Assembly: GCA_023299965.1 (NCBI GenBank)
Contig: JALZVN010000329.1
Coordinates: 1-37,930 of the forward strand
Length of the DNA: 37,930 nt
Reading direction: 5' to 3'
Origin: Saprospiraceae bacterium
Lineage (GTDB): Bacteria; Bacteroidota; Bacteroidia; Chitinophagales; Saprospiraceae
The position numbers were made by a program, and so were the translations under genes. This document shows positions 3,618 to 37,363 of the stretch, in pieces. Under the pieces are notes generated by a model that had not been told where the DNA came from, did not search any database, and saw nothing but the letters and a program-made list of their open reading frames with translations. Positions within the stretch are counted from its first letter, which is position 1. Each line of letters opens with the position of its first letter.

Positions 3618-4616
3618 CTACTCGTAATATACCGCAACCAACTTACCTACCCTTTCTTTAAAGGTATCATACTCCTTCGCTAGCTTGTGAAAGAACAGCT
3701 CTCTGTACTGAAATCCCTCAGAGCTAATGAGCACAGATCTTCGCTTAATATTATCAACCCATACATTTGCCTGCTTGACAAAACTAGGACTGTAGGTAAT
3801 CATATAATGAGGCATATCTATACCTATAAATGCACTCTGAATATCATCAGAGTCATAGAGCAAAATATTCACAAAGTTGCCAAATTCATTCAAGTAAATG
3901 CGCGGTGCATGACTGCCAGGACTTACATCAGCCGCTTTAGGAGAGGTTACTTTTTGCAAGGTGGATAGCAATCTTTCTATATCCTTAAGCAGCAAACCAA
4001 TAAAATCTGCATTTGGAAAAGCACGCATAGTGATACAAAAAACAATCTGCTGATAGAGATTATTCAACATACTAGGATTCCAAATTTCGGTGACTTTTTG
4101 GCTCTTGTAATTGTACTGAATTTCTTTCCTCAAAGATTCCATTCGTTGATCGATGGAAACCGTTTTGTCTATGATCAACTTTGCTTCATTATAATGAAGG
4201 TGATTCCAGATAGAAATTAAGAAATGCAAGATATACTTATGCGAGAAGTAATAATTGATCGGCAGCTCATTCGCTAGATAAGTAATCTTACTACTCTTAT
4301 GCCCAGTGGTCGGCTTTAGATACACCGCAAAGCGATCTACAAAGTCGATGCTGGACGCATTATCTCTCTTCCAAAATGGATGAAAGAAAGGCATATAGCT
4401 TTCATTTTGAAAAATATTATCCAGAGATATTTTAAATATCCCAGCAAGTTGTACCATTTCACTCGCTGTAAGCGCAGTTGTTCCATTCATTCTTTTATAA
4501 ACAGCCCCTTTCCCTAGGTGCAACACCTCCATAGTAGTATGCAATACTTCTTCTGGCGAATGCCTTTCACTTACAAAGTCAAAAAAACGTTTTTGTATAT
4601 CTACTTGATTATTCAT
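3618..4616 (-). CDS. Helix-turn-helix transcriptional regulator, ~330 aa, with a C-terminal domain of unknown function
   Basis: The N-terminal segment LHLGKGAVYKRMNGTTALTASEMVQLAGIFKISLDNIF looks like an XRE-type HTH. I do not recognise the remaining ~260 aa. It is a clean ORF convergent with the 2TM gene (3-nt gap). Confidence 0.55.
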   Translation of the reverse strand: MNNQVDIQKRFFDFVSERHSPEEVLHTTMEVLHLGKGAVYKRMNGTTALTASEMVQLAGIFKISLDNIFQNESYMPFFHPFWKRDNASSIDFVDRFAVYLKPTTGHKSSKITYLANELPINYYFSHKYILHFLISIWNHLHYNEAKLIIDKTVSIDQRMESLRKEIQYNYKSQKVTEIWNPSMLNNLYQQIVFCITMRAFPNADFIGLLLKDIERLLSTLQKVTSPKAADVSPGSHAPRIYLNEFGNFVNILLYDSDDIQSAFIGIDMPHYMITYSPSFVKQANVWVDNIKRRSVLISSEGFQYRELFFHKLAKEYDTFKERVGKLVAVYYE

Positions 4617-7815: not shown

Positions 7816-8871
7816 ATGAAAAAATATATTCCTTTACTTTTATTTTTCTGCAGCGCTGTATGCTTCACATGTAAGACAAAACCAGTCAGCGAAAAAGTAA
7901 TGTCTACTTCAGCTCCAGTGGTAGAAGTCTCTGTCCGTTTTTTAGATAGTTTAGATGCTTCAAATAGTGTTTTAGTGGATAATACCAATGAGATATTCAC
8001 AAGGCTTACCTCTTTAGATATGTGTATCCAAATGAAAGGAGACTGTAAAGAAGGAGAAAGTAAAGACAGCATCGTAAAGCGTTACAAAAAATATTTACAA
8101 AAAGATGTCACCAATTTTAGTGATGACGAAATAAACTGGCTGGGTGGAATATGGGCGGAAGCAGTCAACCTCTGCAACGGTCTCAATAAAAACATCTTGC
8201 CCGCTACTGTCAACCTCATCAAGTCTAAAGGATCATACTATGGTGGAGATGCTTTCTACACTCGAGAAAATTGTATTGTCATTCCTTCGGAAAGAATCGC
8301 CTTGAGACAAAATGAAGCGATGCTCTCCGTAATGTTGCACGAAATTTTCCATTTATATAGTCGTGAAAAACCTGCAAAGCAAAAAGCATTGTATAATATC
8401 ATTGGATTCGAAAGTATCGGAGACTCTAGAGATTTGATTATAGATAGTCCATTAAAAGAACGCCTACTTTGCAATCCTGATGGGCCTAATTTCGCCTACG
8501 GCATAGATCTTCAGTCTAGCAAAGGTGATATCAAATGTATCCCTATTATTAGTTCTACATTAGACAAATTTATTCCATCAAAAACTCAATTTTTTGACTA
8601 CCTCTATTTTGATCTTTTTGAAGTTCAGAAGCAATCCAATGGAAAATGGAAAGTCATCTCCGATGACAAAGGACAAGCTGTAGTACCGGATGATGCAATG
8701 CCTTCGTTCTTCGATCAAATAAAATTTAATACCCAGTACATCATACATCCTGATGAAGTACTAGCAGACAACTTTATGATATTGGCTCTATCCAAAAAAG
8801 ATCCATCCACTTTAGAAAACTTTGATGAAGCTGGAAAAACCTTACTCAAAAAAATAGAAGACGCATTGTAA
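7816..8871 (+). CDS. Lipoprotein with an HExxH motif (putative zinc metallopeptidase), family not recognised
   Basis: Has a signal/lipobox-like N-terminus (MKKYIPLLLFFCSAVCFTC) and HEIFH at aa 175-179 (nt 8338-8352). It starts 4 nt after the tex stop and ends 15 nt before pbpC. Confidence 0.55.
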   Translation: MKKYIPLLLFFCSAVCFTCKTKPVSEKVMSTSAPVVEVSVRFLDSLDASNSVLVDNTNEIFTRLTSLDMCIQMKGDCKEGESKDSIVKRYKKYLQKDVTNFSDDEINWLGGIWAEAVNLCNGLNKNILPATVNLIKSKGSYYGGDAFYTRENCIVIPSERIALRQNEAMLSVMLHEIFHLYSREKPAKQKALYNIIGFESIGDSRDLIIDSPLKERLLCNPDGPNFAYGIDLQSSKGDIKCIPIISSTLDKFIPSKTQFFDYLYFDLFEVQKQSNGKWKVISDDKGQAVVPDDAMPSFFDQIKFNTQYIIHPDEVLADNFMILALSKKDPSTLENFDEAGKTLLKKIEDAL

Positions 8872-8886
8872 CCGTTATATAGCCAT

Positions 8887-11292
8887 ATGACTCTAATCAA
8901 CAAGTACATGCCTAGCCAAAAGAGATATAAGCTACTTGGACTTTGCTTGATAGTATGTATCGTCTATTATATCTTTTGCCTACCCAGTAAGTTGTTTGAC
9001 ACCCCCTATGCAAAGGTATTGGTAGATGAAAGCGGACAACTCTTGAGCGCCAGTATCTCCGCAGATGGTCAGTGGCGATTCCCGCCTATTGATAGCGTTC
9101 CACACAAATTTGCTACTGCCCTTATTCAATTTGAAGATAGGCGATTTTATTCGCATTGGGGTGTAGATCTGCAAAGCGTAGCCCGTGCTATTCATCAAAA
9201 TATTAGTAATAGAAAAGTAGTCAGCGGTGCAAGTACGCTGAGTATGCAGGTCATGCGGCTTTCTGCTCCCCAAAACAAACGGAACCTCTTCAATAAAATT
9301 CAAGAGATGATAAAAGCTACTCGCTTAGAGTTCCGTTTATCAAAAGAAGAGATTCTAGAACTATACACCTCGCACGCTCCATTTGGGGGCAATGTGGTCG
9401 GTTTAGAAGCTGCATGCTGGAGATATTATAGCAAAGCTCCTGATCTACTTACTTGGTCAGAAGCTGCAACCCTAGCAGTGCTACCAAATGCTCCTGCTCT
9501 TATTCATCCAGGTAGAAATAGAAAAGAACTACAAGAAAAAAGAAATAGATTGTTGGCGAAGCTACTTGACACGGGTCATATAGATTCTCTGAGCTATAAC
9601 CTATCGGTAGACGAGCCCATCCCTGTTGCACCAAAAGCACTCCCTAGGTGGGCTAACCATCTCATGCATACTGCCTACAGATATGGAGATCAAAAAAGCA
9701 GAGAAGGCAAAATAAAATCTAGCATCGACATTCATCTTCAAAAAGAAGTGCATCGAATCATAGGTCAAAGCCATAGTGTAAATGATGCAGAATTCATCCA
9801 TAATAGCGCTGCTCTTGTTATACATGTCCCCAGTGGAAAAGTAAAAGCTTATATAGGTAATGCTCCCAATGCAGGTTTTAAAAATCAAGGCGATGTGGAT
9901 ATTGTGATGGCACCAAGAAGCACCGGTAGTATTTTAAAACCATTCTTGTATGCGCTCTGTCTGCAGGATGGGAAATATTTACCCGATGCTATGATCAAAG
10001 ATGTGCCTATCCAACTCCAAGGATACGCTCCTAAAAACTTTGATCGCAAATTTTCTGGAGTAGTCCCTTTTTCACAAGCATTGAGCAGATCACTCAATGT
10101 GCCTTTTGTCAATGCACTACAAGAGTATAATTTGGAAAAATTCTATGACTTTCTCCAAGACGCAGATTATAGTCACATCACAGCCTCTCCAAATCATTAT
10201 GGTTTGAGTCTTATCTTAGGAGGTGCGGAAGCCAACTTATGGGATCTGAGTTCGACTTATGTCAGTATGGCTAGAACCTTGCGTGACTATCCTAATACCA
10301 ATGGTACGTATCAAGCGAGCGATTTTGACAAAGCCAGCTGGCTTGCAAATCATGAAATTCCAACAATGAAAAGAACTGAGCATTCGGATTTTCTTTCAGC
10401 TTCGGCTATCTGGCATACCTTCAAGGCTATGCAACAGGTAAAACGTCCAGATGAAGAAGGCCATTGGGAAAACTTTGACTCCGCGGTAAACATCGCTTGG
10501 AAGACAGGAACTAGCTTTGGCTTTAAAGATGCATGGGCTATCGGTGTCAATGCTGAGTATGTGGTCGGCGTGTGGGTAGGCAATGCAGATGGGGAAGGTA
10601 GACCAGGTCTAATCGGCGTAAAGAAAGCCGCTCCTATCCTTTTTGATATTTTCAAACAACTACCAAGATCAGATTGGTTCGAGCCACCTTACGATGACAT
10701 GGTGCAAATGCCCGTATGCAGAAAATCTGGATATAGAAGCCACAAAGATGTATGCCCTACAGTGGACACCATCTGGGCTCCGCAACAAGGCTTAAAAGCA
10801 GATATATGCCCTATGCATCAAGTTGTATTTACCAATCAACAAGGCGATCGACAAGTGAACGCCACGTGTTATCCAAGAGCACAGATGCAGAAAAAGACTT
10901 TCTTCGTTCTCAATCCTACAGCTGCTTACTTCTACAAACGTTTTGACCCACAGTATCAAGCACTGCCCGTCCTAGCTCAAGGTTGCTCTACGACTAAAGC
11001 GAAGCAACGGAATATGGAATTCATCTATCCTAAAGCAAATGACAAAATCTATATTCCTATAGAACTAGATGGCAAACTTGGAAAAGCGATCTTCAAGGTA
11101 GCGCATATCCTAGATGGTGAAGTACTGTATTGGCATCTTGGAGAGGAATATCTAGGAAGTACTTCAGAGTTTCATGAGATGGCACTGCAGCCCCCTTATG
11201 GCAAAAATAAGATCACCGTTATAGATTCAAAAGGTAATCGAATTAGCCAAAATTTTGAAATCTTGAACAATCAAAAAACTGGAAATAAGTAG
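8887..11292 (+). CDS. pbpC: Penicillin-binding protein 1C (bifunctional transglycosylase/transpeptidase)
   Basis: GT51 motifs EDRRFYSHWGVD and GASTLSMQ; transpeptidase motifs STGSILKP (SxxK), SRSLN (SxN) and KTGTS; and a ~130 aa C-terminal extension typical of PBP1C. It has an N-terminal membrane anchor. Confidence 0.85.
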   Translation: MTLINKYMPSQKRYKLLGLCLIVCIVYYIFCLPSKLFDTPYAKVLVDESGQLLSASISADGQWRFPPIDSVPHKFATALIQFEDRRFYSHWGVDLQSVARAIHQNISNRKVVSGASTLSMQVMRLSAPQNKRNLFNKIQEMIKATRLEFRLSKEEILELYTSHAPFGGNVVGLEAACWRYYSKAPDLLTWSEAATLAVLPNAPALIHPGRNRKELQEKRNRLLAKLLDTGHIDSLSYNLSVDEPIPVAPKALPRWANHLMHTAYRYGDQKSREGKIKSSIDIHLQKEVHRIIGQSHSVNDAEFIHNSAALVIHVPSGKVKAYIGNAPNAGFKNQGDVDIVMAPRSTGSILKPFLYALCLQDGKYLPDAMIKDVPIQLQGYAPKNFDRKFSGVVPFSQALSRSLNVPFVNALQEYNLEKFYDFLQDADYSHITASPNHYGLSLILGGAEANLWDLSSTYVSMARTLRDYPNTNGTYQASDFDKASWLANHEIPTMKRTEHSDFLSASAIWHTFKAMQQVKRPDEEGHWENFDSAVNIAWKTGTSFGFKDAWAIGVNAEYVVGVWVGNADGEGRPGLIGVKKAAPILFDIFKQLPRSDWFEPPYDDMVQMPVCRKSGYRSHKDVCPTVDTIWAPQQGLKADICPMHQVVFTNQQGDRQVNATCYPRAQMQKKTFFVLNPTAAYFYKRFDPQYQALPVLAQGCSTTKAKQRNMEFIYPKANDKIYIPIELDGKLGKAIFKVAHILDGEVLYWHLGEEYLGSTSEFHEMALQPPYGKNKITVIDSKGNRISQNFEILNNQKTGNK

Positions 11293-11497: not shown

Positions 11498-13402
11498 TTA
11501 TTTGAGTTTAAAATCGACAACTGGGAGAATTAATTCCACTCTAGTCCCCATTGCATTCCCCGTTTGCTTGTCATAAAGATCAATCGTCTCTACAGATAAA
11601 TCAGGACTATTTAAACTAGATTTAAGAACATCTAATCTCTTTTGGGTAATAGAGGTCCCCATGGACTTGTGCTGCTCGTGGTAGCCTCCTTTGGCTTGGA
11701 TTTCTCCTGCTTTGACTCTGCCGATTCCATTATCCTCAACTATGCACTTGAGTGTGTCCTCAGTATGGTAAATAAATTCTACCAACAGTCTACCATCACT
11801 TCTAGTGCGAATGCCGTGTTCAAGCGCATTTTCAACATATGGCTGTACGATCATACTCGGTAGGCAGACCAAATCTTCCTCTAGTTCATCATCGACCTTG
11901 ACCACAAAAGTCATTTGGTCAGAATAACGAAGCTTTTTATTGATATCTAAATACTCCTTTAGGAACTCCACTTCGTCCTCTAAGGAGAGACTTTCAATAT
12001 CTGAATAATAAAGGCTCTTTCTAATTAAGCTAGCAAATTGAGCAAGATACTTAGCTGCATTTTCTTTTTCATTGGAACTGATATACCCTTGTATGGAGTT
12101 GAGTGCATTGTGAATGAAATGCGGATTCATTTGCGCCCGTAATGCTTTTAGTTGTAGTTTTTTAGATTCAAGACGAAGCAATTCTGATTCTTGCTCTTTG
12201 CTCTGCGCGTCATATTTTATTTGGAGCTCCGTTATCTTTCTTGCTTTGACTTCTTGTTGATATTCTTCATTGTGATTGGCGTGCATCAACTGATATCTAT
12301 AAGCCATTTCAAAATTTTCTTGCTCAGCGTAATATGCAGCAATACTTTGGTACATTATAGCCAATAGCTTATTGCTTTCACTGGCTTTTGCGTATTCAAA
12401 GGCTTTTAGCAAGGAATCTAACCTCTTTTGGTTTTTATCCAATTTGAGGTAGGCTTCTGCTTTCCAAAGCTGTAAGTAAAAGAGATTAGGAAGATCTTTC
12501 TTTTCTTGTTGATCATATATTTTCTCCGCTGTATTGTATTTTTCTAGTGCATTCTTGATATCGCCTTGCTCAAATAAACAAAAGCCAGCATTGGCGTACG
12601 CACCAGCCTTAGCCGCTACACTCGAGTCGTCCTTAATGATGATAGATTTTTCAAAAAAGGATTTGGCCACTTCGTAATTCTCTAAGGCGATATAACCCAA
12701 ACCAGCTAATAGGTAATGCCAACTCAGTCGTCCTTTGATGTCATTCTTCTCGCACAAATCTACCACGCTAGTGTATGCTCTCACACTCTTTTTGACATCT
12801 CCATTGTGCTCAAAGATATTACCTAGACCGCTTTGAATCACCGTCTGAAAGTAATAATCCTTTGTATCTAAAGCTTCTGCTTTATCGAATCGTTTTTGTG
12901 CTTTATGAAATAAAGAAAGCGCTTTATCATAATTTTCTTCTTTGAGATAAACTCCAGCCTCTCGGCACAACAATCTAGCTCTTAATTTTTTATCCGGAAA
13001 ATCTCTTAATATTCTTCTTGCTTTGGCGATATAGTGTCTTGCTATTTCTAGTTTATCTAGATTGATACATACTCCTACAAAATCAATATACCCCTCGAGC
13101 TGCTCCTTTGCGTCTCCAGAGATTTCTAGAATTTCAATAGCTGCTGTAAACTTACTTTCCGCAAGCTCATAATCATAGTCTTGATTGTGTATTACGCCCG
13201 CTTTCAGGAGATAGCTTAAAAATATTTCTGGTTCTTTATGATTCTTAAGCAAGACTTCCATTTGGTGAATGGCAAATTTTGCTTTCGTGTTGTCTGTATA
13301 AATTAACTGGTCCGTCAACTGATCTAGCATGCGTAGTTGCTGGATGGGTTCATCGCTAGAGAGGATGGCATCTTCAAGTTTTTGAATAGCGTCTGTAAAC
13401 AT
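11498..13402 (-). CDS. TPR-repeat sensor histidine kinase, LytS/YehU (His_kinase PF06580-like) type, with no predicted transmembrane segment
   Basis: About 380 aa of TPR-like repeats, then a coiled coil, then RAQMNPHFIHNALNSIQ (His_kinase box) and an HATPase_c region (QPYVENALEHGI, VEDNGIG). I see no signal peptide or long hydrophobic run in the translation. Confidence 0.85.
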   Translation of the reverse strand: MFTDAIQKLEDAILSSDEPIQQLRMLDQLTDQLIYTDNTKAKFAIHQMEVLLKNHKEPEIFLSYLLKAGVIHNQDYDYELAESKFTAAIEILEISGDAKEQLEGYIDFVGVCINLDKLEIARHYIAKARRILRDFPDKKLRARLLCREAGVYLKEENYDKALSLFHKAQKRFDKAEALDTKDYYFQTVIQSGLGNIFEHNGDVKKSVRAYTSVVDLCEKNDIKGRLSWHYLLAGLGYIALENYEVAKSFFEKSIIIKDDSSVAAKAGAYANAGFCLFEQGDIKNALEKYNTAEKIYDQQEKKDLPNLFYLQLWKAEAYLKLDKNQKRLDSLLKAFEYAKASESNKLLAIMYQSIAAYYAEQENFEMAYRYQLMHANHNEEYQQEVKARKITELQIKYDAQSKEQESELLRLESKKLQLKALRAQMNPHFIHNALNSIQGYISSNEKENAAKYLAQFASLIRKSLYYSDIESLSLEDEVEFLKEYLDINKKLRYSDQMTFVVKVDDELEEDLVCLPSMIVQPYVENALEHGIRTRSDGRLLVEFIYHTEDTLKCIVEDNGIGRVKAGEIQAKGGYHEQHKSMGTSITQKRLDVLKSSLNSPDLSVETIDLYDKQTGNAMGTRVELILPVVDFKLK

Positions 13403-13427
13403 AGGATATCAAATATGGACAATCTTA

Positions 13428-13464
13428 AACAAAAACGGGTACACAACATACATTGTGACCCGTT
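13428..13464 (-). terminator. Intrinsic terminator immediately downstream of the GG-leader peptide gene
   Basis: Stem AACGGGT(A)CACA (13434-13445) / TGTGACCCGTT (13454-13464), followed on the minus strand by TTTTTGTTT. It lies about 30 nt upstream of the kinase ATG (13402). Confidence 0.55.
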
Positions 13465-13484
13465 ATTTAATTCTTGACAGTGTA

Positions 13485-13622
13485 TCAGTGAGGTACAGTA
13501 CCTCCCCAACCACCAAACCAGAAAAATGCTCGCTTGCTTCCTCCTTTGATTTTTTTCATATCGTCAAAGTCGAGTACAAAGAGGTCTTTCTTCAAGTCTT
13601 GAAGTTTAACCAATTTTCCCAT
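13485..13622 (-). CDS. 45-aa double-glycine (bacteriocin-type) leader peptide; candidate pheromone or bacteriocin precursor
   Basis: My translation of the minus strand is MGKLVKLQDLKKDLFVLDFDDMKKIKGG-SKRAFFWFGGWGGTVPH, then stop (TGA = tca at 13485-13487). The leader ends in the IKGG motif. It falls below the 60-aa cut-off of the supplied ORF track, is flanked by hairpins, and lies between the LytTR regulator and the kinase. Confidence 0.6.
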   Translation of the reverse strand: MGKLVKLQDLKKDLFVLDFDDMKKIKGGSKRAFFWFGGWGGTVPH

Positions 13623-13669
13623 AGTACAGGATTTTCGTGTTGTTAAAAATTGTCAGTAAATATATATTA

Positions 13670-13687
13670 TACCCTTCGAAAAGGGTA
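13670..13687 (-). terminator. Short hairpin after the response-regulator stop (weak terminator or attenuator)
   Basis: TACCCTT-CGAA-AAGGGTA is a 7-bp perfect stem 22 nt downstream of the RR stop. The downstream tract is only AT-rich, not a clean U-run. Confidence 0.3.
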
Positions 13688-13709
13688 CAACTTCTTTAGC
13701 AAAGGAAAT

Positions 13710-14471
13710 CTACATCCCCATTTGCATTGCCTTCAACTGCTGTATAAATGCAGGTCTTCTTCTTCTTGACACCTCTATCTCTTTCTCATCATCCATGATC
13801 AAATATCCCCCTTCTCCCTTCACGAACTTTTGCATATAATTCAAATTGATTACATGCTTTTTATGCACTCTAAAGAAGTTCTTACTCTCCAATAAATCAG
13901 CATACCACTTGATCGTTTTGGAAACTGTAATCTTCTGCTTGTTCTCTAGATAAATGTGTGTATAGTTGTCCTCCCCTTCTAGTCGTATAATATCCTTGAT
14001 ATTGACAAAGTAGATGCCATCCACTGCGGAGATACTCATCTTTGAAAAGATGTTAGGATTGGTGTAGTATTCTTTAAACACCTCCAGGCGCTCGTTGATA
14101 GATTCGTCCGCACTAGGCGTATATCTACTAACTGCCTCTTTTAGCTTATCCGGATCTATTGGCTTTTGGATATAGTCTATAGAACTATATCTACAAGCCT
14201 GTACTGCATATTCTGAAAAAGCAGTCACAAAAATAATATTGAACGAGATGTTGGGATTCTGGTCTAGTAGACTAAAAATGAGCCCATCAGACAACTGAAT
14301 ATCCATGAATGCCAGGTCTATTTTAGTACCTAGATTCTGCAATAAAATTTGTCCTTCCGCTATACTCGTTGCCGTACCTAATAATTCAATATCAGGGCAA
14401 TATTCTTGGATCAAATTCTTTAAATTTTTGAGGCTATTCAATTCATCCTCAATAATAATCGCTCTTATCAC
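13710..14471 (-). CDS. LytTR-family response regulator (REC + LytTR DNA-binding domain)
   Basis: REC domain (IRAIIIEDE...DLAFMDIQLSDG...IIFVTAF) followed by a LytTR domain (IYFVNIKDIIRLEGEDNYTHIYLENKQKITVSKTIKWYADLL...FFRVHKKHVINLNYM). I prefer GTG at 14471 (MIRAIIIEDE); the ORF track starts 13 codons earlier, at GTG 14510. Confidence 0.85.
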   Translation of the reverse strand: MIRAIIIEDELNSLKNLKNLIQEYCPDIELLGTATSIAEGQILLQNLGTKIDLAFMDIQLSDGLIFSLLDQNPNISFNIIFVTAFSEYAVQACRYSSIDYIQKPIDPDKLKEAVSRYTPSADESINERLEVFKEYYTNPNIFSKMSISAVDGIYFVNIKDIIRLEGEDNYTHIYLENKQKITVSKTIKWYADLLESKNFFRVHKKHVINLNYMQKFVKGEGGYLIMDDEKEIEVSRRRRPAFIQQLKAMQMGM

Positions 14472-32402: not shown

Positions 32403-35162
32403 ATGAATAGAATTTATACTGTCATATTATTTTCTCTTTTTGTTGGTCAATTTGGCTTACTGTTTGGGCAGGCAGAAATTTGCTTTAATCGAATAGATGA
32501 TGATGGTGATGGTCAAATAGATTGTCAAGACTCAGATTGTGAAACGTTTGTATTCTGCTTTGAATGTGACGAAAGATTTTATCAAGTAATCAACAATAGA
32601 TTTCTTGCCACGCTTGATATCGAAAATCAATTCTATACAGATATATTCAGATTGAATGGAGTGAATGCGATAAATGGTGCTGCGATGAATCCTATAGATG
32701 GTCACGTATATGCATCTGCCATTTCCAATGGAAACCATATTTTAGTATTGGTCGGAAATAATGGCAATCTAGGATCTCTAGAATTAACTCTGCCAGGTGG
32801 TTCAGTGTATTTCATGGCTACAATAGATGATGCCGGTATTTTGTATATGGGAAATCTAGAAGGAAATTTACTACGCATAGATTTAAATCAAGCCAACCTA
32901 GCATGGGAAGACACTGGTATACCCTACCCTGGAGGTACGGACATTGCATTTCACTATGGAGATGAAAATCTATATGCCGTAGGGAATGATAATCGACTTA
33001 TTCAAATCAATCCCAATACTGGTGATGTAGTGTACACTGATCTTATCGGTTCTATAAATAACGACAATGGTTATTACGGTGCAGTTTGGGCAAATAGAGA
33101 TGGGACACTTTTTGTGTCAAATGGAGTTTCTGGAAAGGTATACTATATAGATATAGAAACTAATATCGCGATAGAGGTAATGAACGCTACGGCTAATCTA
33201 AGTTCTAATGACGGATTTAATTGTGGAGATGCATTGCCTCCTTTCGAAACAAACTGCGAAAATGGTATCGATGATGATGGTGATGGTTTAATTGATTGTG
33301 ATGATCCTGACTGTCTAAACTCAAATATTTGTATAGTAGAAATATGCAATAACGGGATTGATGATGATCAAGATGGCTTTGTAGATTGTGCAGATGTTGA
33401 ATGCCAACAAATAACTAGTTGTATTGAAATTTGCGATAATGGTATAGATGACAATGGCGATGGTCTGATTGACAATGAAGATCCACAATGTAATTCTACT
33501 AGAGGAAATGATGGTGGTTTAGAAAGCAACAGTAGACTAGGTGCTGCTATTGCACAAAGAAACTTCGTAAAGAAAAAAGAAGATAATGGGATTGAAGATT
33601 TTACTATTTTTCGGGAGAGAGCAATAGATCCAAATCAAAAGTCTGGTTTTGACATGTCTGTTTTCATACCTTCTGATGCCATCCCAGAGACAACAGCACA
33701 GATTACTTCTCCAGATGATTTAACTCACATCACTAATGCCACTGAAGTCTTTAGTGCTGACTACGTGCATGGAGATAGACGTCTAGCGACTATTTTACTT
33801 CTTAAAACTGAAAATGAAACTTATGAACACTCCAAGTTCATTTGCGACAGACTAGATGGCGCACAGATCAAAGACATTTCAACTTTGTTCTATAATGGCG
33901 AACAATTGATAGTAGCTGAATTGCTGCAAGCTGATGGTAATATAGAGTATGCTGTTTCATTTGCCGCTCATATAAATGAAAGGGGTGCACATATAGAAAA
34001 TCACTGGTTGAAGGAGCATTATACTATTCACTCAGAAATATACAATTTTCAAATCTGGTCAAATAACATGCAAGATTTGATCTATCTAATCGAAGCAACC
34101 TTCAACAGAATAAATCAACATACTGAAATAACATCTATAGAAACAAGTACACCACCTCAGGTATTTATCAGTCATGGTAAAATCGCTAATGGAAAATTGA
34201 ATCTGTATTTAATAAATAAGAATCAAAGTGAAAACATTTCCATTGAAGGTAAGCAGTCTAAAACAGAGCTATCTGAAGCCTTAGATACAAAGCTTGACTT
34301 TAATCTAAACAAGTCTCTCAGAGATATGATTAGTTTAGACATGAGCGATATATATGATATTGGATTTAGAGTCCATACTGAATTTGGAGCAATGGATGAT
34401 CTATTTTTTGCTGATGGTCCATGGGGAACTGAATTTGATGAGAATGAAAATAAAATAATTGAATATATTATAGAGGCATCAGATGACATAAAAAACAATA
34501 GCGTTTATAGTCTAAGCAGAAATGTGTCTTTCGAAGCAGAATTAAGTTCTTCGATTAATGTATTTAGAGGACTGGGGCCAAAGTTTAGAGCTAAAAATCT
34601 AGACAACTACAACAACTTCACCTTCACAGCTAAAGGAAATACTAGAATGAATGTCGTAATGGTGAAAGAAGGAATTACTCTTTGGGAAGATCAACCTAGA
34701 ATAGCTATTCAACTGACAGAAGAAGAAAAAAAGTATACGGTGAAAAAATCCCAATTCAACATTTCAGAATCAGGCTGGAGCGATTTAAAAATGGTTGTTT
34801 TTGAATTCGTAAATAATGAGGAAGGAACAAAAGATGTAGGCGTTGACTTGCGAAATTTAAACTTTAATAATGGTGAAGTGCCTTTGATAGGAAATGATAT
34901 AGAAATAGGTGAACTAATCGTTCAGCCAAATCCATTTAGCACTTCAACTCAATACTTTATCAACTCAGAGATAGATACTAATTATTCAATGAAGCTGACA
35001 GATAGTGCGGGTAGAGTTATAGAATCAAGTGAAGGTAATCTAGTAAAAGGTCTAAATACTTTTACTTTGAACAAAAATAATAATATGACACCTGGTATAT
35101 ATTTTATACAAATGATCTCGGGCAATGGTCAGATATATACTAGCAGAATAATAATGAATTGA
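32403..35162 (+). CDS. Large T9SS-secreted protein: Cys/Asp-rich metal-binding-type repeats flanking a beta-propeller-like region, an unknown central region, and a C-terminal Por secretion tail
   Basis: Signal peptide, then four copies of C-x-N-G-I-D-D-[DN]-x-D-G-x-[IV]-D-x-x-D-x-x-C (aa 27-52 and 285-363). The C-terminus LIVQPNPFSTSTQYF...PGIYFIQMISGNGQIYTSRIIMN matches the type-A T9SS sorting domain. Confidence 0.8.
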   Translation: MNRIYTVILFSLFVGQFGLLFGQAEICFNRIDDDGDGQIDCQDSDCETFVFCFECDERFYQVINNRFLATLDIENQFYTDIFRLNGVNAINGAAMNPIDGHVYASAISNGNHILVLVGNNGNLGSLELTLPGGSVYFMATIDDAGILYMGNLEGNLLRIDLNQANLAWEDTGIPYPGGTDIAFHYGDENLYAVGNDNRLIQINPNTGDVVYTDLIGSINNDNGYYGAVWANRDGTLFVSNGVSGKVYYIDIETNIAIEVMNATANLSSNDGFNCGDALPPFETNCENGIDDDGDGLIDCDDPDCLNSNICIVEICNNGIDDDQDGFVDCADVECQQITSCIEICDNGIDDNGDGLIDNEDPQCNSTRGNDGGLESNSRLGAAIAQRNFVKKKEDNGIEDFTIFRERAIDPNQKSGFDMSVFIPSDAIPETTAQITSPDDLTHITNATEVFSADYVHGDRRLATILLLKTENETYEHSKFICDRLDGAQIKDISTLFYNGEQLIVAELLQADGNIEYAVSFAAHINERGAHIENHWLKEHYTIHSEIYNFQIWSNNMQDLIYLIEATFNRINQHTEITSIETSTPPQVFISHGKIANGKLNLYLINKNQSENISIEGKQSKTELSEALDTKLDFNLNKSLRDMISLDMSDIYDIGFRVHTEFGAMDDLFFADGPWGTEFDENENKIIEYIIEASDDIKNNSVYSLSRNVSFEAELSSSINVFRGLGPKFRAKNLDNYNNFTFTAKGNTRMNVVMVKEGITLWEDQPRIAIQLTEEEKKYTVKKSQFNISESGWSDLKMVVFEFVNNEEGTKDVGVDLRNLNFNNGEVPLIGNDIEIGELIVQPNPFSTSTQYFINSEIDTNYSMKLTDSAGRVIESSEGNLVKGLNTFTLNKNNNMTPGIYFIQMISGNGQIYTSRIIMN

Positions 35163-35293: not shown

Positions 35294-37363
35294 GTGCAGT
35301 TAGAGAAAAAGGCAATTATAGTATTAGTGTTATGCTTATTTGGTCAAATGGTTTTCGGTCAAATAAATATGCAAGATGGTTTTTCAATGCTTGAAGGAGG
35401 AGAATTTTCAGAAGCAAAAGAATTCTTTGAAAATGTACTCAGTAAGGAGCCTAATAACAAAACAGCTCAAATCTGTTATGCTCGTGCTCAAGGCCTATCT
35501 GGAGAAAAAAAGGCAGCCTTAGAAGAATTCAAACATCTACAGATTCATCATCCCGGAGACTTTGAAATACTATTAAATCTTGCAGAAGCATTCATGTGGA
35601 ATGAAAGATATGGAGAAGCTTCACAACTCTATGGAGAGTTGATAGAAATAGACTCAAGTAGCTTTGTTGCCAATCTAGGTTTCGCAAATGCAAATGCAGC
35701 CTTAAAAAATAACGATACAGCGCTTCAATATATTGACAAGTCGTTAGAAGTTGACCCCACAAACCCCAATGCTATTATTAGTAAGAAATACATATTACTT
35801 GCCATGTCTTCTGATTATAGAAATAAATTGAGCTACGATACTTCTATGATGCACTTGGATACTATCCTTGCCAGCCATCCAGATGATAAAGAAGCATTGC
35901 TGAATAAGGCTGTCAATTATTTATGGATGGATAAGCCACACAAAGCCAATAAGATCTATCAAGAAATTACGGATAAAGGGATTGAACCTTTAGAGGGAAA
36001 TATTGGACTTTCATATACTAACGTATTGCTTCATCAAAAATCTCAGGCACAAAGTTATGCTGAAATAGCCATGCTATTGGCTGAGAATCCAGATATCAGT
36101 AGAGCTAATAAAATCAGAGCTGGTGTGAATATGGTCAATGCATTAGGCTTTGACAGAAAATATAGTGAGGCACACAGTTTAATAGATTCTTTAATGCTCA
36201 GATTTGGAGAAGAAGAGAAAGACTTGATCTTAGCAAGAGGAAGGATGTTTGTCTGGGACAATGATACAGATAAGGGTTTAAAATATTATAATTTTCTTGA
36301 CAGTACATATGCACCATCTTTTGAAGTAAAGATGGGGTTAGCGGAAGCTAAACGAGGTGAAAAGAAATATAAAGAATCCGTGGACTATATTAATCAAGCG
36401 TTGGAGATTGTCCCCAACCAACCTGACGCGCTACGGTTAAGGGAAGTGGTAAAAGATGAATACCGACCTAAACTCACTTTAGATTACATGTATGCTCAAG
36501 ATGTTGGTGATAATTTTGCTTATGTAAGTCAAGCCAAATTTGAAGTCGGCGATAAGGGACGTTTTAGAACATTTATTCACTTTACTAATAGAAGACTTGA
36601 ACAAGTGAGCGAAGCGAATACGGCCAAAGCGAATAGTATAACCATTGGAACAAAATTTCAAGCAAACAAGAAATTAAGCTTTTTTGGGCATATAACCCCT
36701 TTTCAAAGTACAGATGGAGATGGGTCGACCATTGGAAAAGAAATATTACTAAACACTGGTGTAGAATATGATATAAACAAAAGTCAAACTGCAGGGTATT
36801 CATTTTCTCAAGAGATACATAATTACAATGCAGATCTACTTAGGGCTAATATCACTATGAACCATCATACCTTCTTTTACCATATAAGAACTCCATATAA
36901 GATTGGCTTATATACTCAGTTCATTAGCACAAATCAGAGTGATGGAAATTTAAGAAATTTATTGTATGCTTCTCTTTATTACAATTTAGTTGAGATTCCA
37001 TTTATAAGGTTTGGGGTTAACTATAATGTAATGACTCATCGAGATCAATTTCCACTACTCTACTTTAGTCCAGACTACTTTCAAAATGTAGAAGGGTTTA
37101 TAAACATCAACAATATAGAAAGGCGTAAGAATAAAATAATCTTTGACTTAACAGCTGCTTTCGGGCAGCAAACTACTAGAGAATCCCCTGCAGAATTAAC
37201 CAGAAGAATAGAAGCTAAATTAGGATTCAGATTTAATGAAAGTAGTTATATCCTAGGATACTATCGCCATAGTAATGCATCACAAGCTACAGTTACTGGA
37301 TTTAGCTATACTGCCATTGGACTACAAGGTGTGTACACATTTAGAAAAGCTAATAAAAAGTAA
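35294..37363 (+). CDS. Outer-membrane TPR + C-terminal beta-barrel protein (PgaA/PelB/BcsC-like polysaccharide export scaffold-porin architecture)
   Basis: GTG start and signal peptide (IIVLVLCLFGQMVFGQ), then ~380 aa of TPR-like repeats. The following ~300 aa have alternating-hydrophobic strands rich in Y/F/G/N, ending ...GLQGVYTF-RKANKK. Confidence 0.6.
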   Translation: MQLEKKAIIVLVLCLFGQMVFGQINMQDGFSMLEGGEFSEAKEFFENVLSKEPNNKTAQICYARAQGLSGEKKAALEEFKHLQIHHPGDFEILLNLAEAFMWNERYGEASQLYGELIEIDSSSFVANLGFANANAALKNNDTALQYIDKSLEVDPTNPNAIISKKYILLAMSSDYRNKLSYDTSMMHLDTILASHPDDKEALLNKAVNYLWMDKPHKANKIYQEITDKGIEPLEGNIGLSYTNVLLHQKSQAQSYAEIAMLLAENPDISRANKIRAGVNMVNALGFDRKYSEAHSLIDSLMLRFGEEEKDLILARGRMFVWDNDTDKGLKYYNFLDSTYAPSFEVKMGLAEAKRGEKKYKESVDYINQALEIVPNQPDALRLREVVKDEYRPKLTLDYMYAQDVGDNFAYVSQAKFEVGDKGRFRTFIHFTNRRLEQVSEANTAKANSITIGTKFQANKKLSFFGHITPFQSTDGDGSTIGKEILLNTGVEYDINKSQTAGYSFSQEIHNYNADLLRANITMNHHTFFYHIRTPYKIGLYTQFISTNQSDGNLRNLLYASLYYNLVEIPFIRFGVNYNVMTHRDQFPLLYFSPDYFQNVEGFININNIERRKNKIIFDLTAAFGQQTTRESPAELTRRIEAKLGFRFNESSYILGYYRHSNASQATVTGFSYTAIGLQGVYTFRKANKK

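Follow-up and report, generated by a model that had tools for sequence, protein, structure and literature searches.

A conserved double-glycine propeptide gene beside a LytTR response regulator and a soluble TPR histidine kinase: a candidate peptide-signalling cassette in Saprospirales

Peptide-based cell-cell signalling is regarded as a Gram-positive trait. In the three-component modules of Firmicutes (ComC/D/E, BlpC/H/R, PlnA/B/C/D, SppIP/K/R), a double-glycine propeptide gene adjoins the genes of a histidine kinase and a LytTR response regulator. In the RRNPP systems (Rap/Phr, NprR/NprX, PlcR/PapR, PrgX, AimR/AimP), which to our knowledge are known only in Firmicutes and their phages, a propeptide gene adjoins that of a cytoplasmic TPR receptor. 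According to a review of two-component quorum sensing, Com pathways occur in bacilli and clostridia only, and the Agr pathway in bacilli, clostridia and alpha-proteobacteria only (PMC8895600). We analysed a contig of 37,930 nucleotides from a Saprospiraceae bacterium of the phylum Bacteroidota (JALZVN010000329.1, assembly GCA_023299965.1; the whole stretch is called the window hereafter). A preliminary description, made from the letters of the window, had noticed an unannotated peptide gene between a LytTR regulator and its histidine kinase and had proposed a self-contained peptide-signal cassette or a regulated bacteriocin. It had added that no characterised example was known, and our literature search bears this out: we found no description of the peptide family, nor of any peptide pheromone system in Bacteroidota.

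The three genes lie on the minus strand in the order LytTR regulator (14471..13710), peptide open reading frame (ORF; 13622..13485) and histidine kinase (13402..11498), and reading the sequence confirmed the 45-codon ORF 13622->13485 between regulator and kinase as it had been reported. Its translation, MGKLVKLQDLKKDLFVLDFDDMKKIKGGSKRAFFWFGGWGGTVPH, divides into a leader of 28 codons, MGKLVKLQDLKKDLFVLDFDDMKKIKGG (13539..13622, minus strand), and a core of 17 codons plus a TGA stop, SKRAFFWFGGWGGTVPH (13485..13538, minus strand). The leader follows the double-glycine rule, with I at -4, M at -7, D at -8, L at -12 and L at -15. The ORFs of the window were scanned for the pattern [LIVMF] at -15, [LIVMF] at -12, [DE] at -8, [LIVMF] at -7, [LIVMF] at -4, any residue, then GG. 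This canonical pattern was confined to a single small ORF, the one described here (three nested starts among 805 entries), and did not occur in any of 30 shuffles of the window. The bacteriocin-type double-glycine leader that had been proposed is thus upheld. The best match of the peptide to a hidden Markov model (HMM) was to TIGR04149, a weak one that covers the leader (14.3 bits, E = 0.029, under the curated cutoff of 25). In the core, FFWFGG, G41 and V-P are unchanged in every orthologue.

The 45-codon ORF is a real gene under purifying selection. With the kinase as probe, six orthologous loci (L001-L006) were found in uncultured Saprospiraceae genomes, their kinases sharing 84-88% and 56-57% identity with that of the window. 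In all six, an ORF of 44-45 codons stands at the matching place and in the matching frame; the two most distant of these peptides are MGKNAKLDDLRKDLFILDDAELSRVKGGRKKVFFWFGGCRGIVPQ and MGRIAKLDDLRKDLFVLDNAELSKIRGGQKKSFFWFGGCRGFVPQ. Across the window and the six related loci, the pairwise ratio of nonsynonymous to synonymous substitution rates (dN/dS) of the peptide gene is 0.03-0.47. Differences in the peptide gene number 295 at third codon positions, 141 at first and 111 at second, and the gene of L001 carries a clean in-frame 3-nt deletion. The low dN/dS, the third-position bias and the in-frame indel indicate purifying selection on a protein. The check on reading-frame conservation that had been proposed therefore came out positive: in relatives that retain the two-component pair, the frame is kept and the indel is in frame. 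The shortness of the ORF, the AT-rich genome and the two hairpins on its flanks could have suggested that the ORF arose by chance or that the intergenic spacer contains a non-coding regulatory RNA element. A chance ORF is ruled out by the frame conservation, the substitution pattern and the family search described below. To either form of this explanation we assign next to no probability, given a frame kept across about 190 clusters, synonymous-biased substitution, an in-frame indel and a leader pattern that shuffling does not produce; the region of the peptide ORF also has no match to any Rfam family.

When a profile built from the first relatives was run against a set of 1.84 billion representative proteins (E <= 1e-3), it returned 99 clusters at 50% identity, nearly all of them 45-55 amino acids long. 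A second, word-indexed search yielded 129 family clusters at 90% identity. The family amounts to about 190 clusters, all from the order Saprospirales, an assignment that follows from the source names (Saprospiraceae, Phaeodactylibacter, Haliscomenobacter and 'Bacteroidota bacterium'). Except for one JGI label, 'bacteriocin-like', its members are uncalled or annotated as 'hypothetical protein' throughout. The cultured type strains with a member are Haliscomenobacter hydrossis DSM 1100 (AEE52373.1) and Phaeodactylibacter luteus (WP_170254682.1); for the latter, the predicted mature peptide is KGKKNYNNGCSDIVPQ.

Family leaders are 28-31 amino acids long. Among 188 members, the GG is invariant (100%), and the positions before it are strongly constrained: I/V/L at -4 in 94%, M/L at -7 in 80%, D/E at -8 in 89%, a hydrophobic residue at -12 in 100% and L/I/V/F at -15 in 88%, while -19 is mostly Leu (141/188). 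The cores of the same members have a median length of 18 amino acids (range 13-25) and a median net charge of +3; 73% of them contain one Trp and 80% one Cys. They end in the motif G-G-I-V/L-P-Q, with P-Q as the final two residues in 96%; for the family as a whole, the C-terminus can be written G-G-I/T-V-P-Q/H. The window lineage is an outlier, in which Trp replaces the usual Cys and His replaces the final Gln (2/188 each), and its peptide is one of the 37 out of 188 from which Cys is absent. Judged by these sequences, the window ORF is a local, somewhat atypical member of an undescribed propeptide family that extends across Saprospirales.

No curated model covers this family. Among 56 members, 27 gave sub-threshold matches to TIGR04149 (GG_sam_targ_CFB, curated cutoff 25 bits) and 14 to TIGR01847 (bacteriocin_sig, 15.7 bits), with best family E-values of 4.5e-05 and 0.0071, respectively. 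The HMM check suggested in the preliminary description was thus successful in that both models match the family, and unsuccessful in that every match stays below its curated cutoff. Weak matches to models of bactofencin A and other class II bacteriocins were also seen. With the 'GG-Bacteroidales' precursors of TIGR04149, which give rise to ribosomally synthesized and post-translationally modified peptides (RiPPs), the family shares a leader of the Bacteroidota type, L..L...EM..IxGG. Unlike those precursors, it has a distinct core and a two-component instead of a biosynthetic context, and no radical-SAM (rSAM/SPASM) maturase or peptidase-ABC gene adjoins it. As a separate observation, N-W-N-N is present in many cores, e.g. 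in that of P0007, KNDKKKKNWNNGLGGIVPQ, and also forms the central residues of NNWNN, the 'extracellular death factor' of E. coli; this overlap is probably a coincidence.

The genomic contexts of 12 distinct lineages were compiled from six genome loci, from 13 metagenome loci recovered by a degenerate DNA pattern for WNxG[C/L]GGIVPQ, and from exact-protein look-ups. The complete trio of regulator, peptide and kinase is present in 8 of the 12, cultured P. luteus included, and the synteny is thus conserved well beyond close relatives, as its discovery in the window had led one to ask. In two further lineages (L077; L079-82 with L091), peptide and kinase occur with no orthologous regulator adjoining, and in two others (L087/89/95; L099/100, the Haliscomenobacter type) regulator and peptide occur with no kinase adjoining. 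Regulator orthologues, with 57-94% identity, are therefore found upstream of the peptide in 10/12 lineages, and kinase orthologues directly downstream of it likewise in 10/12. Every locus contains exactly one family peptide. In the window, the neighbours are housekeeping genes (PBP1C, ion channel, DoxX, FAD protein, DAHP synthase), and the arrangement of DAHP synthase, FAD protein, DoxX and ion channel on one side of the cassette and PBP1C on the other is kept between families of the order. This conservation of the wider neighbourhood indicates that the cassette is an old, vertically inherited element of the core chromosome, as opposed to a mobile bacteriocin island.

The search for exporter, maturase and immunity genes covered 10 kb around the loci whose genes were listed, plus the window. 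No C39/ABC exporter and no immunity-like gene was found in any of these loci, and no maturase-type rSAM/SPASM gene in them or in the window. The single Radical_SAM match among the listed loci is a MoaA-type protein 6 kb away in L077. The window itself holds no peptidase-ABC exporter, radical-SAM enzyme or immunity-like gene; that neither a C39 exporter nor an immunity gene is in it agrees with the preliminary description. The term 'self-contained', by contrast, has to be dropped for the cassette, since no exporter is linked to it in any gene-listed locus.

Some loci depart from the common arrangement. The Haliscomenobacter-type member (L099/L100 10001-10150, AEE52373.1) is the most widely seen of all, on 180 contigs and in 467 index blocks; at L099/L100, an opposite-strand Big_7 protein secreted via a type IX system (T9SS) occupies the place where the kinase would be expected. 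Directly upstream of the peptide in L079 (7265-7834), and also in L080-L082, is a 189-amino-acid protein with no Pfam match, a signal-like segment at its N-terminus and Trp in a regular repeat; 1.3 kb further up, these loci carry a separate pair of a membrane LytS-like kinase (357 amino acids) and a LytTR regulator. In L077, a stop interrupts the TPR kinase (8225-10132) between its DHp and ATPase regions and leaves pieces of 507 and 117 amino acids; this is either a pseudogene or an assembly error, and no regulator adjoins in this contig. In other Bacteroidota and in Firmicutes, distant kinases of the LytS type (L007-L076) show similarity to the kinase core only, and a family peptide was near none of them in the 32 Bacteroidota-side loci scanned (L007-L036, L057, L072).

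The kinase of the window (634 amino acids; 11498..13402, minus strand) matches Pfam TPR_12 (1.6e-15) and His_kinase PF06580 (4.9e-21), as well as TPR_2 and other TPR models and, weakly, HATPase_c. About 400 amino acids of TPR-like helical repeats are followed by a coiled coil and a LytS/YehU-type core of PF06580 His_kinase and ATPase. No transmembrane segment is present in this protein: the maximum 19-residue Kyte-Doolittle mean is 0.79, compared to 2.08 for a membrane LytS-like kinase used as control, and the ORF allows no upstream extension. The same applies to 16 of the 17 listed orthologues (maximum <= 1.30), the exception being the L093 kinase (2.07), the ORF start of which is over-extended. 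Lacking a membrane segment, the kinase cannot detect an extracellular peptide at the membrane in the way of ComD or AgrC. The kinase is cytoplasmic, and it is plausible that its TPR domain binds the peptide.

This TPR domain, the presumed sensor, is the fastest-evolving part by sequence comparison: identity to the window protein falls to 33-39% in the TPR part, to 50-58% in the kinase core and to 57-65% in the regulator. In an AlphaFold2 model of the domain, built from a single sequence (pLDDT 71.7), 20 helices form hairpin repeats and the middle part is poorly resolved. In a Foldseek search with this model, the best matches were peptide-binding TPR domains, those of LGN/Pins, and NprR, a peptide-bound phage Rap and RapI took ranks 33-35; these matches were not used as evidence of membership. 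When the kinase was searched by sequence against the PDB, the matches were one kinase core and designed TPRs, and no RRNPP protein was among them.

The regulator (13710..14471, minus strand; 253 amino acids) belongs to the LytTR family (Pfam Response_reg 2.4e-10, LytTR 5.5e-19). A mechanical ORF list starts it at GTG 14510 (266 amino acids), whereas GTG 14471 gives MIRAIIIEDE, the usual start of a receiver domain, and orthologues with called starts measure 251-255 amino acids. The true start is GTG 14471, and the 13 extra codons of the longer version are probably untranslated.

Two hairpins bracket the peptide gene, as the preliminary description had pointed out, and both are more stable than shuffled sequence. 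The one just past the regulator stop (13666..13691, minus strand) has an 11-bp stem and a UUCG loop (folding energy -12.9 kcal/mol, z -2.8) and is a likely terminator or insulator of the regulator gene. Each of the seven close loci (the window and L001-L006) has a hairpin after the regulator stop, of differing sequence, and in L005 and L006 it carries a T-run. The other one, in the peptide/kinase spacer (13427..13464 including its T-run, minus strand), resembles an intrinsic terminator, AACGGGTCACA...TGTGTACCCGTT; for the hairpin proper, 13434-13464, the folding energy in a 65-nt context is -18.9 kcal/mol (z -3.7), and TTTTTGTTT (U5GU3) comes directly after it. A T-tailed hairpin of at most -7 kcal/mol is present after the peptide stop in 17/21 loci, and its stems differ between loci yet pair equally well, e.g. 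GGGTCACA/TGTGTACCC and GGGCTGCA/TGCAGCCC.

The -7 promoter element of Bacteroidota has the consensus TAnnTTTG. A candidate box of this type, TATATTTA, is located 35 nt upstream of the peptide ATG (13657..13664, minus strand), and in most lineages a TAnnTTTAC-like box precedes the ATG by about 30-75 nt, or by up to about 100 nt in two of them; its position and sequence suggest a promoter role. A sigma-70 promoter scan did no better than on shuffles, and the sigma-70 model is in any case inapplicable to Bacteroidota. Because a promoter-like box lies upstream and a terminator-like hairpin downstream, we infer that the peptide forms its own short transcription unit and that the kinase would be supplied by read-through. 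Short conserved sequences were also noticed around the gene. The peptide coding sequence of the window clade is bracketed by TGACA on its upstream side and by TGTCA just past the stop. The bases directly before the ATG (13623-13660 region) are kept across distant lineages as AAAATCCTnTACT-ATG, or at least TACT-ATG (seen in the window, L001-L006, L086, L093, L101 and L103). These bases could be a translation-initiation context or a regulatory site.

In its workings, the cassette comes closest, among described systems, to the three-component peptide modules of Firmicutes. It shares with them the adjacency of a double-glycine propeptide gene to a histidine kinase and a LytTR regulator, a short cationic mature peptide of similar size and a terminator after the peptide gene. 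However, it fails their defining receptor feature: in place of an AgrC/ComD-type (HPK10) receptor with 5-7 transmembrane segments, Saprospirales have a soluble kinase with a TPR sensor and a PF06580 core. It also differs in its order of regulator, peptide and kinase, with the peptide apparently a transcription unit of its own, in having no ComAB/BlpAB-type exporter or bacteriocin/immunity operon nearby, in its diderm host, and in a peptide that is highly conserved and forms no pherotypes. The analogy to ComCDE, BlpCHR and PlnABCD that had been drawn earlier therefore does not stand, given the soluble TPR kinase and the lack of pherotype-like diversification.

The second group of relatives in design are the RRNPP systems, in which a cytoplasmic TPR receptor gene likewise adjoins a propeptide gene, as is the case here in 10/12 lineages. 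This adjacency would imply cytoplasmic sensing of a processed peptide. In contrast to the HTH, Rap-type phosphatase or protein-binding output of RRNPP proteins, a histidine-kinase core feeds a response regulator here, and the propeptide has a double-glycine leader instead of a Sec or PptAB signal. No sequence homology to RRNPP proteins was detected, and the structural match is generic (TM-score about 0.4). Within Bacteroidota, TPR repeats are also present in the sensor kinase of the FimS/FimR pair of Porphyromonas gingivalis. FimS lies in the membrane with its TPR domain in the periplasm, has an OmpR-type regulator as partner and is associated with no peptide gene; its model, NCBIfam NF053520, matches the window kinase weakly (26.8 bits, cutoff 600).

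As the best explanation of these data we tentatively favour, at a little less than an even chance, a secreted signal or regulatory peptide coupled to the two-component system, with sensing taking place in the cytoplasm. The leader would be cut at the GG by a C39-type peptidase/ABC exporter encoded elsewhere, to give a peptide of 17 amino acids (13-25 across the family) that would serve as a signalling or regulatory ligand of the two-component system and not as a weapon. With no membrane segment in the kinase, the TPR domain would have to meet the peptide in the cytoplasm, either after re-uptake, as in RRNPP systems, or because the kinase monitors the pool of unexported precursor. Binding of the peptide would alter kinase autophosphorylation, and the kinase would in turn set the phosphorylation of the LytTR regulator and so control the peptide promoter and further target genes. 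The likeliest recognition epitope for the TPR groove would be the invariant free C-terminus; the TPR 'carboxylate clamp' recognises EEVD or PTS1 tails. The SusCD-like RagAB imports oligopeptides in P. gingivalis, and by analogy re-uptake of the peptide is conceivable in Bacteroidota. Signalling also fits the setting better than a bacteriocin does, because there is one copy per locus, the synteny is conserved and no immunity, exporter or maturase gene is found within 10 kb in the gene-listed loci.

A more far-reaching version of this proposal, which we consider doubtful at present, is that the cassette is the first peptide-pheromone system of Bacteroidota and that the combination of a cytoplasmic, RRNPP-like TPR domain with a histidine-kinase core is a new receptor architecture. 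In this version, the TPR domain would bind the free G-G-I-V-P-Q end, after re-uptake or before export, and a phosphorelay would lead to the LytTR regulator. If true, two Gram-positive logics of peptide sensing would be merged in a diderm bacterium.

Several results weigh against peptide sensing by the kinase. Besides the lack of a linked exporter in the gene-listed loci, co-variation between the peptide core and the TPR domain, with kinase-core distance controlled for, was not significant (partial Mantel r = 0.12, p = 0.08). Between L079 and L103, divergence is 5% in the core, 10% in the leader, 32% in the kinase core and 50% in the TPR domain; by this measure the peptide is more conserved than its neighbours, unlike known pherotype signals. 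In two lineages, H. hydrossis included, regulator and peptide occur without an adjoining kinase, and the peptide may thus be an output only. In modules of the ComCDE type, autoinduction runs through LytTR direct repeats of about 9-10 bp, spaced about 21 bp, ahead of the peptide operon. LytTR-type direct repeats with 18-24 bp spacing were sought in the 260 nt upstream of the peptide in 22 loci, and none was shared between lineages; one repeat pair, GATCTACACA/GATTTACA[AG]A, is confined to one clade. A cationic peptide of 17 amino acids would also have to be re-imported across two membranes, and the similarity of the sensor model to TPR superhelices has to be called generic because of its low TM-score.

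Most of these points would be accommodated if the peptide were a regulated bacteriocin or other antimicrobial, i.e. if the two-component system induced a cationic, Trp-containing peptide on some other cue and the kinase did not sense the peptide. We regard this as unlikely, but as deserving serious weight. A double-glycine leader joined to a cationic core, usually with one Trp, is what such a peptide would have, and the weak matches to models of class II bacteriocins, bactofencin A among them, agree with it. So do the regulator-peptide pairs that persist without an adjoining kinase in two lineages, the undetected co-variation with the TPR domain and the lack of LytTR direct repeats shared between lineages; the higher conservation of the peptide than of its partners speaks against its being a private 'pherotype' signal. 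Whereas bacteriocin loci usually form islands that vary from strain to strain, this cassette is single-copy, vertically inherited and located on the core chromosome, with near-identical cores across genera, and neither an immunity gene nor an exporter nor a second peptide is found within 10 kb in the gene-listed loci. Moreover, the adjacency of peptide and kinase persists without the regulator in two lineages.

Two other functions appear less probable. In one, the 45-amino-acid product would stay in the cell, where an N-terminal amphipathic helix or the C-terminal tail would bind the TPR domain and tune the kinase, much as Sda modulates KinA. A wholly cytoplasmic kinase, the absence of a linked exporter in the gene-listed loci and a higher conservation of the entire peptide with its leader than of the kinase are consistent with such an intracellular modulator. 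Nevertheless, we consider it improbable: the leader obeys the positional rule of C39 substrates and its GG is invariant, neither of which a cytoplasmic binder needs, export-leader HMMs match the leader, and the peptide persists where the kinase does not adjoin. Slightly more improbable still is a RiPP precursor similar to TIGR04149, with a core modified, e.g. at the conserved Cys, by a maturase encoded elsewhere; this would be compatible with either a signal or a toxin. TIGR04149 is indeed the best HMM match, with almost half of the members tested (27/56) matching it, and the single conserved Cys in 80% of members and the invariant C-terminal motif might reflect a modified core. On the other hand, every HMM match lies under the curated cutoff and a maturase is absent from all gene-listed loci. 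A Cys cross-link cannot be essential either, as the 37 of 188 members without Cys, the window peptide included, demonstrate.

The signalling proposal concerns a peptide and a two-component system with a soluble TPR kinase in a diderm phylum, the function of which we so far infer. The trio conserved across Saprospirales is a testable candidate for peptide signalling in Bacteroidota. Since the mature peptides are predictable and open to synthesis, purification of the soluble receptor domain should be easy, and cultured hosts are available (P. luteus with the full trio, H. hydrossis DSM 1100 with regulator and peptide), the existence of Bacteroidota peptide pheromones can be tested directly. The family also adds about 190 clusters of a conserved small gene that annotation has missed or labelled 'hypothetical'. 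Saprospirales are abundant filamentous bacteria of activated sludge and marine particles, and if their core genome includes a signalling circuit, this could matter for filamentation, bulking or predation.

Elsewhere in the window, two ORFs of 332 and 351 amino acids (3618-4616, minus strand, and 7816-8871, plus strand) have no Pfam match at E <= 1e-3. A DUF6923 protein of 919 amino acids with a T9SS C-terminal sorting domain is encoded at 32403-35162 (plus strand), and its gene is followed by that of a 689-amino-acid protein made up almost entirely of TPR repeats (35294-37363, plus strand). Both of these proteins appear to be unrelated to the cassette.

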